Made by a program: the position numbers and the translations under genes
Shown: piece after piece, positions 8,796 through 17,195 of the stretch
Layout: the number at the start of each line of letters is the position of its first letter
Numbering within the stretch: the stretch's first letter is position 1
The notes under the pieces: model-generated
Seen by the model: the letters and a program-made list of their open reading frames with translations, nothing else
Told to the model about the DNA's origin: nothing
The model's database searches: none
Assembly: GCF_011745625.1 (NCBI RefSeq)
Contig: NW_027191475.1
Span: 361,920-381,919, forward strand
From: Cladosporium halotolerans
Lineage: Eukaryota
DNA length: 20,000 bases
Direction of reading: 5' to 3'

Positions 8796-10495
8796 ATGGC
8801 GGAGCCTACCACGCCCGACGCCGGGCCCAGCTTCGCCCCGCCGAGTCTCCCTCCCGGGTGGTGCGTCTTCACCAGCCCTTCTTGACCTCACACTCCCGAT
8901 CACACTTCCTCCTCTTCCCTTCCCTCGAGAGTCTCCAGCAGCTCGCGACCCTCAGCTTCCTCTTTCTCTCTCCTCCCACCTCTTTCACCGCTCGTGTGAG
9001 ACATTGGGCCTTGGCACTGACTTGGCGGCTATTCTAAAGGATCGCGCAGTGGGACAACAAGTGAGTGGTCGTTCTAGCCTCCCTTCTGTCGACCAGGTCG
9101 ACTTTCTCGCAATCAGGCGTTCTAACGCGCAATCCGCAGATCGCGAAAGTACTACTTCGTCCAAATCAGCACCGGCGAGTCCACCTGGGAAGTCCCCACC
9201 GCCGCCGCTCCGCAAGTCCCTACGCCGGGAGGCACGCCAGCACAGATGTCGGATCCTTTCCCGAAACCTGGTCAGCAGGGCGACCGCGGTAATGGTTATG
9301 GTGACGGCTACGGTAACGGCCAGGGAAATCAGTATGGGAACAACGGGCCTGAGGGCGCACAGGAGGGCGAGAGAGGGTTTAAGGTGAGAGGGCAACGATC
9401 AAGAGATGCCATCGGTGAGAATATGGTTACTGATACGTGGAACTATAGACAGACGCTTTCAAGATGGCCATGGGAGGCGGCAAGTCGCACTCAAACTCCT
9501 CCGGCCTAGGCGGTCTGGCCTCCTCGTTCCTGGGTGGAAGCTCAGGCGGTCACGGCAACTCCTCGCACAACTCTTCTGGCCTCGGAGGCCTTGCTCAGTC
9601 TTTCCTGGGCGGCAACGACAACAAGCACTCGAACAGCAATCAGCACGGATCTTCCGGCGGCGGCCTTGGAGGCCTCGCGCAGTCGTTCCTTGGCAGCAGC
9701 AACAACAACCACAACAGCCAGCACTCTGGCAGCAATCAGCACGGCTCATCAAGTGGAGGTCTAGGCGGCCTCGCGGGCCAGTTTCTCGGTGGAAGCAGCT
9801 CGTCAGGAGGCCACCATGGCTCGAGCCAGAACCAGGGCTACGGAGGAGGCAGCAACCAAGGCCACGGCAGTAGCAGCGGAGGCGGCTTCCTCAGCAGCCT
9901 GACGGGCGGTCACGGTGATAAGCCTCAGAGCGGCGGCTACGGTTACTCTGGAAGTGGCTCGAGCGGCACTTATACAGGCTCCGCTCCTCCCAGCTCATAC
10001 CAGCCCTCTGGCGCACCTTCACATGGCTCCGCTCCTCCAAGCTCCTCCTATCAGACTCCCGGCGCCCCGCCGCACGGCTCTGTTCCTCCAGGGACCTACC
10101 AATCCTCCGGCGCCCCGCCCCACGGCTACGGCTCCCAGCCCGGCGCACCGTCTGCGGGTTATGGCCCGCAGACTGGCTCTTACAACCCACCCGGCGGCGC
10201 TCCCTCATATGGGCAGGCAAGCGGCCACAGCGGTCCACCACAGCACGGCTCATACGGCGGGCCTCCTCCACCGCAAGGCGGGTTTCCTCAAGGCGGATAC
10301 AGTGGAGCTGGCACGCCTGGCGCTCCTGGTGGCTACGGCCAACCACAGGGAGGATATGGCCAGCCTCCTCAGGGTGGCTACGGTGGTGCCCAGCCGCCGC
10401 ACGGCGGCTATGGAGGCGGCGGGTATGAGCAGCATGGTGGCGGTGGTGGTGGCTATGGAGGAGGAGCACCGCCGCCGAACCCAGGGTGGAGGTAG
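8796..10495 (+). CDS. WW-domain protein with Gly/Ser/Asn/His-rich repeats and Gly/Pro/Gln/Tyr-rich tail; exons 8796-8860, 9040-9060, 9140-9383, 9449-10495 (458 aa)
   Basis: Splicing assembles a WW domain LPPGW|IAQWDNK|SRKYYFVQISTGESTWEVP. Introns: GTGCGT..CACTGAC..AAG, GTGAGT..TCTAAC..CAG, GTGAGA..TACTGAT..TAG. Exon sum 1377 nt, in frame. Confidence 0.85.
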
Positions 10496-11087
10496 ACGGC
10501 GATCGGTTCTTTGATTTCCTCATTTTGGTTTTTTTGGCAAGCAACGGATGAGTTTGATGACTGTACATGAAAAATGACTGCGTGCATGACATGATTGATT
10601 GATTGATGCGTGGCTACTTCTGGTTGCTCGTTTTGAAGCGTTGTGCGCGGTGATTCAGCAATGGAGACGTGAGACCGTAGACGGTGATGTAGATTCCGGA
10701 ATTGAGCATATCGTTGCCTTCCCGCGAATACGAGCCTCGTGTCTGCATGCGATGATAGCGGCGATTGAATCACGCCGCAGTCACCGCATGCAAGTGCTTA
10801 TTGAGAGACATCACCCCGGCAGTGGCACACAAGGCCCGGCACCTGAAGGCTGCACCGTGTATCTGATGTCTCAGACTGCATCCAGCCCGTCTGCACGCGC
10901 AGGCCTGTCTGAGGCAGCCACCAGACACGCCCGCCGCCGGCCAAGCTTCAGGTGAGCGCAGCGCCCCCAGACGCGTCCGTGCGCGGCCCTCTAACGCGGC
11001 CCGCTGGGCGGCTTCATCATCTGGAGATTCCACGAGACAGCCAGACAGACCGCACCCGCTCGCTAGCCTGCCACGCTGCCACGCCTG

Positions 11088-11118
11088 CACTGCTGCCACT
11101 GCCACTGCCACTGCTGCA
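11088..11118 (+). repeat. Imperfect (CCACTG)n hexamer microsatellite upstream of ypt1
   Basis: cactgctgccactgccactgccactgctgca seen directly. Confidence 0.6.
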
Positions 11119-11266
11119 CCACTCTTGCTCCCACGCATACTGCTCAACGCGCATCTGCCCTGACACTGCTAGGCATCCTCCCTCTCCTCCTCACGACCAC
11201 GGCGGCCACTCTCTGCCGCAGCACCACTGCACCTAACCCCCCGCGACACCCACACCCTCAGCAATC

Positions 11267-12217
11267 ATGAATCCCGAGTGGTGAGTGCCCTCGCCTGCCA
11301 ACGACGGCGCCTATGCCATACCTCTACTGCAGGCAGCACTGCTATGATAAGGACGTCACTAACACCGCGCCTCGCAGAGTATCTCCCGACCGCACCCTTC
11401 GCGCAGACCGCCACAGCCCGCTCCTCCTCGCTTTCCCGCTGCGCGCGCCCCGCCCCATCGCCCAAAAACCACCCCTACTGACCCGCACCCGCCGCAGATA
11501 CGACTACCTCTTCAAGCTTCTCCTCATCGGTGACTCCGGCGTCGGAAAGTCATGCCTTCTTCTCCGTTTCGCCGATGATACCTACACCGAGAGCTACATC
11601 TCCACCATCGGCGTCGACTTCAAGATCAGGACCATCGAGCTCGACGGCAAGACTGTGAAGCTTCAGATTGTGCGTCTCTATACCCTGAGAGAATAGTTTA
11701 CAACAAGTGACGGAATACTGACGGACTTGTGCTACAGTGGGACACCGCGGGCCAGGAGCGCTTCCGCACAATCACCAGCTCCTACTACCGCGGCGCGCAC
11801 GGCATCTGCGTCGTCTACGACGTCACCGATATGGATTCCTTCAACAACGTCAAGCAGTGGCTGCAGGAGATCGACCGCTACGCCACCGAGGGCGTCAACA
11901 AGCTGCTCGTCGGCAACAAGAGCGATATGACCGACAAGAAGGTTGTGGACTACAACGTTGCAAAGGTTCGTCGATATTCCTGCACTCCTCTGATTTTATT
12001 TCCAGCTCACACATCTTCACAGGAATTCGCAGACAGCCTCGGCATCCCCTTCCTCGAGACTTCCGCCAAGAACGCCAGCAACGTCGAGCAAGCCTTCCTC
12101 ACCATGGCCCGCCAGATCAAGGAGCGCATGGGCAACACCACCGTCAACAACAAGCCCACCGTGCAAGTCGGCCAGGGCCAGGGCGTGCAGTCCGGCAGCG
12201 CCGGCGGCTGCTGCTAA
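11267..12217 (+). CDS. ypt1: Rab1/Ypt1 small GTPase; exons 11267-11277, 11498-11669, 11738-11965, 12023-12217 (201 aa)
   Basis: [51 protein letters not shown]-terminal GGCC prenylation motif; exon sum 606 nt. Confidence 0.97.
11278..11497 (+). other. Complex first intron of ypt1: putative [D3,4] spliceosomal twin intron (internal 11281-11377; external 11278-11280 + 11378-11497)
   Basis: Internal: GTGAGT donor, CACTAAC branch 11357-11363, CAG 11375-11377. Its removal joins GTG+AGT into a perfect GTGAGT donor, used with TACTGAC 11476-11482 and CAG 11495-11497. Confidence 0.85.
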
Positions 12218-14864
12218 ATGCATTGCTTGGACATTCCACCCGGCTTCGGAAGGCCGAGCTCTCGGAACACACATACCTTTTTTTCTCTTACCTTTCACGA
12301 GATCCCCAAATCCTCTGTTGTTTTAATTGCCTGCTGCTGCGAAAGAATACAAACGTCTGAATTCCAAGCCTGATTGATGAGAACAAACCAAACACACTCT
12401 TCGCCGTTTCACCCGAGAAGTCCAATCCGATCCGCGACTCGTTCTTGACGCTGAGACTGCTGCTGGGGAATCTTCGCGAGAGAGCAAGAGGGTATCACAG
12501 CGAGCAAGCAACGGCGACTTTCAATCAACGGACTGCTTGGATTCCCTTTCCGTTCACGAGAGACACGAGTTGAAGGGAGTGGCGGGCGTTTCTTTCTTTT
12601 TCTATTCTGCTGCTCGGCTAGACTTTCGTGCTTGCTTTTCTCGCCCCGGCTGCTGTTCTTCTGCTACGGATCCTGCACTGCACTGCACACATGACTCTCT
12701 CGAAACGCGGTTCGCGGGCGGTGGAGATGGTTCCGCTGCGCATAATGGATAGGCTGGGCTAGGCTAGGCTAGGGTAGTTTTGTTGCATAACCGGGTTTTT
12801 GACTTTGGACTTAGTCTTTCGGCTGTGATTGATTCGTCTCACGTATTGGTTTTGGTATTGTCCTATCTCGCCAAGTAACTTGTGCCGCGGTGATAGTTTG
12901 ATTCGCTTGGGCTGCAGGTTGGGTGGGTGGTTGGAGGTTAGGCGGAGATTGAAAGTGTAGGAATGAAGGTAGGTACGTAGGCGGTCGAGCCGAGATCTGG
13001 AGGATGGAGGACTTGGGGTGGCTTGGTGTTACGCATGCGGATTTTGAGCTGGAGATTAGGACAGGGAGTGAATCCTACGCAGCTACCCTAGGCGATAATT
13101 CTGAGAAGCTGGGTAGTGTGCTTGTCGTATTGAGAAGATCTCGTGCGTTGCTATAGCCTGCGGACGCGATGAAGCTTCATCTAGTGCTGGGAAGGAATGT
13201 TCGGACGAGCGTGATGAGATAATGCCGTCTGCATTCAGTGGATTTGGGTCGCTACCTTACGTAGGTTGCTGTGGATTTTGCTCGTGATTCTACGAGGTCA
13301 ATTCTGTCGCTTTGAGCGGAGGAGGAGTTCCTTCTATTACATTTCGAGACAGATGCGTCGACATGTAATTCACCACGAATTCTACTCGCTTTGTTGAGCA
13401 TTTGCGGATCTCGATGCTGGTGCACAGGCTATCGGTAAGAGATTCCGCGGTCGAATTGATTACTTGTGAGTTGATTGGCATCGAGGGCACCGACGGTCTC
13501 TCTCGACTTGTGATATCGCAGTGCAGTCATCTCAGGAAAAGCTTCCAGATACAGGTGTATGACTTTGGCCAGCAATAGCCTTCACCAGTTGTCGCGGCCT
13601 AGGTCTATAGGCCTACGTACGGTGAGGGATAGACTCATCTCGTCGGATTCGAGGGGCGGATTGGATCGTATTTTTGCAATGTGCGGAACCCAAAGAACGC
13701 AGATATCTCTATTGGCTACAGTCGACATGGACAAGATTGCCTCAGGACTCTCGGACGTCGACGACACCATTCCCCCCCTAGTTGGTAGCCAGTCACTCTT
13801 CAAAACTTGATCGTGACATTAGTCCCGACAGTAAAACGGATACCAGCGCGAATGTATAATGCTGTTCATAGCGAGCATCAAATACTGACGACAGAATTTG
13901 AGTCCGAGTAAACGTATTGATCGTCAAACCCAAGTACCTTGGATCATGGACTATGTAGTCGACTCGTGACAGCCTCCCGATGTTGAAGCCTCGTGTGGTC
14001 GTCCTCGCGGTCAAAGCAAGTCATTTAGATAACGCTGTAACAATTAGAGTCTTCCTTCCAATGTGCAGGATCCAAAAAGTGGCGATATCACCGAACCTCA
14101 TGCTTCTGTTGAGCATGTAATTCGGACAGCCGTGAGGGCTTTCAATCAAGTGTATGTCTTGGTTTTTCTGGCTCGGGATGTACGAATTCTTGCGCCCGAA
14201 GTTTGACCGTATACTATTAGCGAGCACATACTATGAGAGCGTCAAGGTACACTACATTTTCACGACGTCCAGTCCGTGTGTCCGTCAGTTCAGAGATGTG
14301 TTGCAAGATCGATGAGGTGGAACCTCCGTTGCTGCCTGAGGCATGAATTACGCTACAATTCCCCGCGACCAACGCGCGACAAGGGATCCCAGCAGGCGCG
14401 TGTGAGGCACATGACTTGCGCCTATGAATGCCCGACCACTTCAAACACACTCTTTATTATCACTGCCTCACTTCGCTTTCGCGCACATTTTGCACTATTG
14501 CAGTGTCGATGTGCATTCCATTCTCGGCATTCGTCTCCTCGCGCAATTGTTTGTCCGTTGTTGACAACCACACCTAGGCGCAGAAAGCTGAAGCATTCGG
14601 GCGAACAGGCCAGTGTCGCGCCACATCCGTATTTCTACGCGCCTCTCAGCTCAGTTACACCTATTGGAGACTGCGCAGTCTCAGACGGCTTCATCACAGG
14701 GGACACTCAAACGTACAATAAATATTGCTCGATGCTGCTTGCCGCCCATCGGAAGTACCCAACCGAGGAAAACGCACTATGAAAGAAAGTCAACGCATGC
14801 AAGTGTCAGAACCACCTGCTAGCAACGGCCGCTCTTTCCGTCAGCAAACGTCGACGCAGGTGAC

Positions 14865-17195
14865 ATGGTCGAGTCAGCAATTACTACGCACCGCAAGTTC
14901 GTAGGTACTGCTTGCTTGTACCGCCACCTCGCGTTGCGAAAACCTCCTTTCCTGCGCAGGAACTTGAACCTTATTCTGGAACGACACGAAAAGCTACTCG
15001 CGGTCTCGAGAGGCGGTGCTGTTGACGGGGAGATGAGTGTGAACGAGAGGCGAGATGTTGGGTGGGATTACCCCACCACTGAGATGCTGGAGGATTTACT
15101 GAAAGGCCAGAAGCCAGTGTTGAATGTGGATGGATTGCGGATCTGGCGGCATGGCTCCAGAGCACAGAGGTAAACATTTCCTTGAGACATTGCCCATTTT
15201 GGATCGAGCGCAATTAATTCTCGAAACAGTGCTCGGAATCGATTGTCTCGAAAGGCTGGTAATGATCCTGATTGGCTTCCTGATCCGGACATCGATTTTC
15301 GAGCTCTTTGCTTCGTCACACTTATCTTTTTCGACCCTGGCAAAGGCAACACCAAGAAGAATAAGATCCACGTCGATACCAGAACCGCGCACATAGAGGG
15401 TAGGGAGGTGGCGGCGAATGAGTTTCGCTTCGACATCCACCTGGACGAGCCGTTTTCAATCGAGGTTGACAAGATCTATGAGACTGTCGCTAGAGGTAGT
15501 AACGGAACGCGGAGGTGGAAACGAACAATTCCGACTCACTATCAGCTTGATGTCGAAATCAAATGCCAGGACCCTCAGGATTCGATCGACTTTCTTTCGT
15601 TGATTGAGGAGAAGTCTCCGAAAGTGTACCAATCATCCCTGACCGCAAGAGACGCAATTTTGCGAGCCAACTGGGACGACCTCCCTGAATGCCCGGGCCC
15701 GAACAAGCTTCTGAGAATGACACGCACCAATGGTCCCGACTATGAAACTGAATCAAACTACGGAGTTGGCTTGTCAATAGGTTGGAGCCCGAAGAGAGAG
15801 TCTCCTCTGGCTACATATACGAAAGCTCGGCGTGCGGCCATTGTCCCCGAGCAGGATCAACTGCCTACACCGAGCGCATCCGACGAGTCTGAAAAGGCTA
15901 CAAAACAGCACGTGATAACATACATCTTTATGAATGAGCGATATCTCATCCAGGAGAATTTACGCTGTCCTCTCTGTGCTGCTGCGACGAATGCCCACGC
16001 TCTCCACGAATACGCCTCGTTCGATCAACTGCATTTTCATCTTCTTATGTGGCACGATCACTTTCACCCTAAGGTTGTGGGAGAGAAAGACTCCGATGCT
16101 TGCCATCGAAAGGTGTATCTCTGGTTTTCAGGCCGACAAACCGAGAAATTTAGTCAGCCTGTGGATGAGGACGATGAAGAGGAGTGGATAGCCCCCAACA
16201 GGCCTTTCGATCAAAAAGCATACCTGAGAGGCGAAGATGATTGGACCGGGCATCCGAGACTCCCCTCGCCAACAAGACATGGTCCAAAGCCTGCAAGACC
16301 TCCCACGAGATCTCTTAAAAAGCACGCTTCAAGTACTTCGGTTAGTCAGCTTTCAGCCAAGAGCAGATCCCACCCCTCAGAGGTGCGCGATATGCCCGAC
16401 TTGCCTAAGCCCAGATATCGAGTGCCAAAGGTCCCAGGGATCAGATTTTACCGTACAAAATCGAAAAGGCCTTTCGAGGAAGACGAAGAGGTTTCCGAGA
16501 GCGATGAGGAGGTCGACGAGAGCTGGCTACGAGCCCGCCTGCACGACGACATGCAGTCTCTGCCGATTAGCGCAGGCGAAGCGGAGTTTATACGTGACTG
16601 GAACTATGCGGCGAACGAGGAGAATTTCTCGGCTAACGTCCTCACGCGAGAGGGCGTGGTGCGCTTTACGAGGGTCTTTCAGGCGAAGCTGCAAGAACGG
16701 CGGTACTGCGAGGCATTTACGGCTTTCCTGGCCCGGCTGAAAGCGCACAGTGTGCTTGATGATGCGGTCTTTGACTACTGTATGGACCGGATTCAAGCAG
16801 TGTCAGATCTAGACAGCGATGACTTCCGACGGCTTAAGCATCCTCGATTGGAGACTGCGGCATCAAGGCGGGAAATGGCACCGGCAGTCCCAGCGACAAA
16901 TGGATGGGCAGTTCGAGGAGGCATCAACGGCAATACAATCCGTGGAAAGGGCAGCTTGAACGAGTCTGCGCCTCAAGGGCGCAAGACTTGCACATGCGGC
17001 AAATCGGTTTCCAGCGCAAGGGGCAGTATCATTTGCCACGACAACGTAAGTGCTTTTGGAAAGTGCCTCGAGGCTTAAGAGCTAACAATTTTGCCACAGC
17101 GCTGCTCCCGCGTTCATTTCCACATGGCTTGCGTCGGGCTCACGACCCGTCCAGACGCGTGGCGGTGTGCCGATTGCTCTCCTCCAGACCAATAG
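14865..17195 (+). CDS. suz12: Suz12-like (VEFS-box) Polycomb PRC2 subunit with C-terminal PHD finger; exons 14865-15169, 15230-17045, 17100-17195 (738 aa)
   Basis: N-terminal RKPPFLRRNL, C2H2 finger LRCPLC...FDQLHFHLLMWHDHF, VEFS-like FYRTKSKRP...SESDEEVDESWL...EAEFIRDWN...VVRF, and C4HC3 PHD. Introns 15170-15229 (GTAAAC..CAG, weak branch) and 17046-17099 (GTAAGT..GCTAAC..CAG); exon sum 2217 nt. Confidence 0.78.

Follow-up and report, generated by a model that had tools for sequence, protein, structure and literature searches.

The first intron of ypt1 in Cladosporium halotolerans is probably a spliceosomal twin intron of the [D3,4] type

Introduction

How does the spliceosome of a fungus excise an intron whose apparent donor is poor while a strong donor lies three bases further in? 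The question is raised by the first intron of the ypt1/Rab1 gene of Cladosporium halotolerans, a complete intervening sequence of 220 nt at 11278-11497 of the window, the whole 20,000-nt stretch of genomic DNA analysed here, in whose coordinates all positions below are given. The original prediction, drawn from the letters of this stretch, was that the interval is a nested pair of introns, or spliceosomal twin intron (stwintron), in which one intron interrupts the donor of another between its third and fourth nucleotides, a split designated [D3,4]. Stwintrons provide the clearest evidence that short fungal introns are recognized individually, through intron definition; they are also used as models for the origin, movement and loss of introns.

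Results

Exon 1 lies on the forward strand at 11123-11277, where 11123 marks the limit of the RNA contigs described below, and consists of 5′ untranslated sequence followed by the coding letters ATG AAT CCC GA (11267-11277), with the start codon at 11267-11269. The intervening sequence opens with GTG at 11278-11280, the putative first half of the outer donor. Directly behind it is a candidate inner intron of 97 nt (11281-11377) with a complete set of signals: the donor GTGAGT (11281-11286), the branch element CACTAAC (11357-11363), in which the branch A would be 11362 of the ACTAAC at 11358-11363, and the acceptor CAG (11375-11377), whose G stands 15 nt from that A. The AGT at 11378-11380, immediately behind the inner acceptor, is the putative second half of the split donor and begins the 120-nt 3′ part of the outer intron (11378-11497). 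This part carries a second branch element, TACTGAC (11476-11482; predicted branch A 11481, in the ACTGAC at 11477-11482), and ends in the CAG at 11495-11497 that serves as acceptor in mature RNA. The outer unit measures 3 + 120 = 123 nt. When checked against the sequence, the positions first proposed for the exon end, the donors, the branch elements, the acceptors and the AGT were every one exact to the base.

The inner unit as predicted is situated within the 6-nt donor of the outer unit, between nucleotides 3 and 4, and its removal would yield a consensus donor: GTG fused to AGT reads GTGAGT, followed by AT, and matches GURWGY at six of six positions. The donor found in the DNA at the mature 5′ junction is GTGGTG, which fits at three of six, the misfits being G at +4, T at +5 and G at +6. 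Joining the strong donor at 11281 to either acceptor produces a GAG TGA stop, so that the conserved N-terminus MNPEYDYL needs a cut after 11277, that is, after the GA of exon 1, as had been anticipated. Two other arrangements of these signals were tried and rejected. If the outer GT is paired with the inner acceptor, a donor that shifts the frame is left 1 nt downstream, and taking the tandem AG at 11378-11379 as the inner acceptor would rebuild the poor donor GTGTAT.

The remainder of the gene is conventional. Exon 2 (11498-11669) starts with A TAC GAC TAC and ends in the codons for KLQI; it is followed by an ordinary 68-nt intron (11670-11737, GTGCGT..CAG), by exon 3 (11738-11965), by an ordinary 57-nt intron (11966-12022, GTTCGT..CAG) and by the coding part of exon 4 (12023-12217), which ends in the double-cysteine C-terminus GGCC and the stop codon TAA at 12215-12217, all on the forward strand. 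The three downstream exons span the Pfam Ras profile PF00071 from end to end (profile positions 1-52, 53-127 and 129-161), and the best solved relatives are human Rab-1A and Rab-1B and yeast YPT1, with E values of 1e-29 to 1e-40 (exon 3 against Rab-1A, 1e-40); Rab8, Rab10, Rab35 and Sec4 are weaker matches, at about 1e-19 to 1e-26, with Rab8, Rab10 and Rab35 at about 1e-24 to 1e-26. The first residue encoded by exon 2 aligns to residue 5 of yeast YPT1, and four upstream residues, MNPE, are therefore expected. These profile and relative matches, which agree with the identity given in the original prediction, show the gene to be the Ypt1/Rab1 orthologue of a fungus whose introns are short and whose branch sites read CTRAC.

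The neighbourhood of the gene offered several side observations. CTGCCA/CTGCCAC-like repeats lie at 11070-11125, just upstream of the start of the RNA contigs. The upstream neighbour (9126-10495, forward strand) matches the WW domain weakly, at an E value of 5.5e-4 that falls short of Pfam's cut-off, and continues into a long low-complexity stretch rich in Gly, Ser, Tyr, Gln and Pro. Two further neighbouring genes on the forward strand are a 630-aa open frame at 15186-17078 with a match to the VEFS-box of the Polycomb Su(z)12 type, and a 434-aa frame at 1020-2324 with WD40 repeats.

Public sequencing runs were searched with 11000-12700, and four of the 24 runs listed (X1, X2, X3 and X7) were aligned to 10400-12900; all four consist of assembled contigs, in which rare forms drop out. 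The joint 11277/11498 is present in one X1 contig and one X7 contig, thus in two of the four runs and in two studies, and it skips 220 nt bounded by GT..AG with zero ambiguous letters. The X1 contig is recorded as RNA, is 1370 nt long and differs from the window at one letter, and X7 is RNA by guess rather than by record. The mature mRNA consequently reads CCC GA joined to A TAC GAC, encoding MNPE/YDYL, and the mature junction expected at 11277/11498 is the one present in these contigs. Both ordinary introns are also absent from contigs of X1, X3 and X7, which carry the joint 11669/11738 for intron 2 and, for intron 3, a joint aligned at 11963/12021 that becomes 11965/12023 when the cut is moved by +2. 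These three joints, each of them mature, are all that the contigs of the four runs show, and they settle the exon-intron model of ypt1. Upstream, the RNA contigs cover 11123-11277, and the repeat at 11086-11122 cuts contigs off beyond this, so the 5′ end of the transcript extends at least this far; at the other end, the 3′ untranslated region reaches at least 12813 in an RNA contig. The X2 contig extends through the introns and the spacer upstream, as DNA from a close relative would. Within the 220 intron positions it departs from the window at three (11313, 11320 and 11388), none of them within a signal, and with so few changes it tests nothing on signal conservation.

The joint of a splicing intermediate, 11280/11378, was found in none of the contigs from the four runs, a result with no bearing either way, since rare forms drop from contigs. 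Likewise, intermediate-like or intron-retaining cDNA contigs were found in none of the 26 loci, among 100, that carry the exon-1 motif ATGAAYCCNGA. The appearance of 11277/11498 as the sole joint at this intron fits two successive excisions and, equally well, a single ordinary 220-nt intron that is removed in one step from the weak GTGGTG at 11278, in which case the GTGAGT three bases downstream would only help to recruit U1 and the inner signals would be bystanders. A GU stands at 11278, so use of the site in one step is chemically possible, and the distal branch site and its acceptor are good ones. In other systems, atypical donors are known that U1 reads in a shifted register.

Given that the RNA joints accommodate both routes, the structure was compared among orthologous loci. 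Metagenome contigs were scanned with the exon-2 peptide, and the best 80 of 474 confirmed relatives were kept. Five of these 80 (L033, L038, L047, L048 and L058) have an acceptor directly before A TAC GAY, at the same phase-2 position. L038 begins inside the intron and is without exon 1, leaving L033, L047, L048 and L058 as evaluable. All four have the nested layout, GA/GTR/GT..branch site..YAG/AGY..branch site..YAG/A, with inner donor, inner branch and inner acceptor signals in four of four and a distal branch site and YAG before A TAC in each. Their 5′ ends read GA/GTA/GTGCGT (L033), GA/GTG/GTAAGC (L047), GA/GTG/GTACGC (L048) and GA/GTG/GTATGT (L058), so that the first half of the split donor is GTG in L047, L048 and L058 and GTA in L033. 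The inner branch elements are ACTGAC, GCTGAC, GCTAAC and ACTGAC, in the same order, and the inner acceptor is followed directly by the second half of the donor, as CAG/AGC in L033 and as CAG/AGT in the other three. The donor that would be rebuilt is GTGAGT in the window, L047, L048 and L058 and GTAAGC in L033, and the letters behind the inner acceptor extend it as AGTA in four of five (the window plus the four loci). Inner and outer units measure 69 and 85 nt in L033, 67 and 91 nt in L047, 65 and 80 nt in L048, and 183 and 78 nt in L058.

These loci are distant orthologues. The exon-2 peptide of the relatives is identical to that of the window at 57 of 57 residues, with only 29-38 of 57 third-codon positions identical (43 of 57 for L047 against L048). 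Forced global alignments, taken over the inner units and over the outer 3′ parts, give 35-56% identity for the intron bodies (62-66% for L047 and L048), and only the signals line up. Because silent sites and intron bodies have diverged so strongly, the kept inner signals are not leftover similarity. In all five sequences, joining the inner donor to the distal acceptor gives a stop, GAG TGA or GAG TAA, so any use of the strong donor requires the inner 3′ signals. The pattern argues for selection on the inner signals and hence for two-step excision, in a comparative set that is small (five lineages, metagenome contigs only). Removal in one step, by contrast, leaves unexplained why the inner branch site, YAG and AGY are kept in five of five lineages whose intron bodies cannot be aligned, and why the rebuilt donor is extended as AGTA in four of them.

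Several observations were made alongside this comparison. An extra phase-0 intron of 57-90 nt follows exon-2 nucleotide 123 in L033, L038, L047, L048 and L058 and is missing from the window; it was either lost in the lineage of the window or gained in the others. No synteny was found between the window and the flanks of the four relatives. A scan of a prokaryote genome collection with the exon-2 peptide returned 20 loci, all of them prokaryotic Rab-like sequences, and no fungal contig. Three contigs of Gammaproteobacteria MAGs (L081, L082 and L083; match at 1501-1671) hold a Rab-like stretch with 70-75% identity to the exon-2 peptide of the fungal Rab1, and their Rab genes are probably of eukaryotic derivation, residing in bacteria.

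The donors of the outer units were compared with those of ordinary introns. The consensus GURWGY is said to originate with Kupfer et al. 2004. The mature-junction donor of the window does not fit this form expected of a single U2 intron, and a similar misfit is found in five of five loci: the primary outer donors read GTGGTG, GTAGTG and, three times, GTGGTA, each with G at +4 and T at +5 and each missing three of the six positions of the consensus, which is quoted for fungal donors in stwintron papers (PMC12403724, PMC7138796). G at +5 is present in 16 of 16 complete ordinary introns from six ypt1 loci; one further ordinary intron, cut by the end of the L047 contig, reads GTACAA. A single step from 11278 would thus have to start from a donor that lacks three of six consensus letters, including the G at +5 kept in those 16 introns, and together with the conserved inner signals this makes such a route unlikely. 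As to size, inner units of 65-183 nt and outer units of 78-123 nt would be normal for these genes, whose ordinary introns measure 57-110 nt, and fit recognition by intron definition.

The frequency with which such signals arise by chance was estimated in three ways. A test that counts a branch motif with YAG/AGY 3-35 nt behind it scored 84 of 5000 dinucleotide shuffles of the intron core of the window, and across the five loci the counts were 84, 64, 58, 42 and 174 of 5000. For a GTRNGY donor at one fixed place, composition gives p values of 0.0015-0.0036 across the loci, with about 0.0017 quoted for the window. Finally, a composite [D3,4] motif was matched six times in 483,976 positions (101 sequences, 241,988 bases, both strands). 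Four of the six hits are the ypt1 first introns of the window, L033, L047 and L048, and two are unrelated (L015, 49-263; L056, minus strand, 385-636). L058 was missed only through its distal branch element, CCTAAC, which does not match the motif at its first position. Within the long inner unit of L058 there is a second CAG/AGT (2339-2344, positions 111-116 of the intron) with no branch motif nearby. It is a string that arose by chance or else a remnant of an older inner acceptor, and it shows that such strings can arise by chance.

The exon-1 motif loci also bear on how the nested intron may have arisen. Of the 26, 17 run directly into exon 2 (cDNA-like or intronless), four are nested and five have an ordinary intron. 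These five (L015, L026, L027, L057 and L070), all eukaryotic Rab1 loci, carry one ordinary intron after coding nucleotide 14 (GAN TA/C GAY), with lengths of 71 nt (L015, exon 1 at 2415), 611 nt (L026, exon 1 at 1645), 106 nt (L027, exon 1 at 1283), 57 nt (L057, exon 1 at 732) and 209 nt (L070, exon 1 at 58). The position after coding nucleotide 14 is that of the inner donor of the nested type, 3 nt downstream of its mature junction; on both sides the outer junctions of the nested type are placed 3 nt upstream (GA/A TAC), and the mRNA is unchanged. At this site, the letters GAGTAGTG are common to L026 and L033. An ordinary intron at the outer position was found in none of the 26 loci.

Discussion

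The interval 11278-11497 is, in our view, probably a spliceosomal twin intron of the donor-disrupted kind, type [D3,4]. In the proposed mechanism, the first reaction would use the strong donor at 11281 together with the closest branch site and acceptor (11357-11377), and the spliceosome would remove the 97-nt inner intron. The GTG at 11278-11280 would thereby be fused to the AGT at 11378-11380, producing the consensus donor GTGAGT with AT behind it, which would then pair with the distal branch site and acceptor (11476-11497) for removal of the 123-nt outer intron. The outcome would be the joining of CCC GA to A TAC GAC that encodes MNPEYDYL. From the signals we infer a separate excision of the inner intron that precedes removal of the outer one, and we take the primary GTGGTG not to work as a donor in its own right.

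Two-step excision would account for the retention of the inner 3′ signals and the AGY in all lineages, for the extension of the rebuilt donor as AGTA in four of five and for unit sizes like those of normal introns; it would also explain the selective pressure, as the strong donor joined to the distal acceptor gives a stop in all five. Two consecutive reactions have been described for other split positions and rest on ascomycete intron definition (PMC12403724, PMC7138796). The best reading of the chemistry of this feature is accordingly an unexceptional one, two consecutive ordinary splicing reactions.

A mixed situation may also be envisaged, in which one-step and two-step excision run in parallel to the same mRNA and the nested signals act as a kinetic aid that is not obligatory. 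All joints in the RNA contigs are compatible with it, and alternative one-step and two-step removal of complex introns has a precedent (PMC7138796, PMC12403724) in the abutting-donor intron of Lipomyces starkeyi, for which both routes are described, but there the products differ. If one step sufficed in ypt1, however, the inner 3′ signals should have decayed in some of the five lineages, and none has lost them; we therefore regard parallel routes as quite improbable. That the gene model itself is wrong, because the gene has a different first exon or start codon or because 11278-11286 is misassembled, is scarcely credible, as an RNA contig identical to the window runs through 11123-11277 and joins 11498, the DNA-like X2 contig of a close relative keeps the splice-signal letters, and four other loci have the same exon 1 and stub.

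A two-step [D3,4] intron in ypt1 would share its main features with known stwintrons. A [D2,3] stwintron is present in the biotin gene bioDA of Sordariomycetes and a [D1,2] stwintron in lipS (Flipphi et al. 2017, PMC5639578). As in those cases, the inner unit in ypt1 would be a U2 intron inside the 6-nt donor of an outer U2 intron, the host gene is well conserved, and the layout is fixed at one position (there across whole fungal classes) while the intron sequence drifts. Unlike them, the ypt1 intron is split between donor nucleotides 3 and 4 rather than 1 and 2 or 2 and 3, and its two-step path is predicted from sequence. It likewise resembles the [D4,5] stwintron of Lipomyces lipofer (PMC7138796) and the [D5,6] stwintron of rtnA, in a reticulon-like gene (PMC7138796, PMC6616335), in being donor-disrupted in a way other than [D1,2], and differs from both in split position and gene; these two papers also set out a "stwintronisation" model, in which new inner splice sites arise within an older intron. 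A broader parallel, named in stwintron papers too, is recursive splicing at the ratchet points of animal introns, in which a first splice regenerates the 5′ splice site for the second step, as would happen here. Recursive splicing concerns very long introns, and its regenerated donor is not a hexamer split by an intron, whereas in ypt1 it is the donor hexamer that an intron would interrupt, and both units are short.

A conserved [D3,4] stwintron in ypt1 has apparently not been described before. The literature consulted lists as demonstrated types [D1,2], [D2,3], [D5,6], [A2,3] and [D4,5], plus the looser [D6,7] and [D7,8] (PMC7138796), gives (D1,2), (D2,3) and (D5,6) for the Xylariales (PMC8469720), and states in a 2025 paper that types other than [D1,2] are rarely met (PMC12403724). 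Almost all described cases are [D1,2]. [D3,4] is absent from these type lists, although it may be mentioned elsewhere in the literature. The papers searched that are devoted to stwintrons contain no mention of ypt or ypt1, and those also searched for GTPase lack that word; ypt1 was combined with stwintron, nested or twin intron, or recursive splicing in none of the matches listed, and no publication was found that combines ypt1, introns, filamentous fungi and splice site. The original guess that the ypt1 case was undescribed thus held as far as the literature check reached, which yielded neither [D3,4] nor ypt1.

The ordinary Rab1 introns after coding nucleotide 14 suggest how the nested structure may have formed. 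The nested intron may be derived from an older Rab1 intron, or have formed around one, and both of its outer splice sites would then have moved by one codon. An ancestral GAG TA/GT would already hold the 5′ hybrid motif GTA+GT, and a shift of the intron by one codon would follow from the gain of an inner acceptor with AGY behind it and of three exonic letters at the 3′ end. It is possible, and we advance it tentatively as less than an even prospect, that the ypt1 [D3,4] stwintron is the surviving bridge of such a codon-sized, 3-nt intron shift, as read from a small number of loci. Alternatively, the outer intron was the host and its 3-nt coincidence with the ordinary Rab1 intron is due to chance. 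If the offset does reflect descent, ypt1 would be a living intermediate for codon-sized intron sliding. Such sliding has been debated mostly from statistics.

By way of comparison, an alternatively spliced [D1,2]/[A2,3] stwintron has been described (Fekete et al. 2017, PMC5587772) as an intermediate through which an intron shifts by 1 nt. According to that study, the mechanism applies to neighbouring positions only, and codon-step shifts are excluded. The ypt1 intron is similar in that a stwintron links two nearby intron positions with the mRNA unchanged, and differs from that case in that its offset is 3 nt, or one codon, and no alternative inner intron is evident.

The locus also carries a warning for annotation: the GT..AG junction passes gene callers unnoticed, and a nested structure behind it stays hidden. 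Established as a stwintron, the first intron of ypt1 would complete the series of donor splits from 1/2 to 5/6, in an essential, single-copy and extremely conserved gene for which orthology is trivial and failure of splicing is easily scored.
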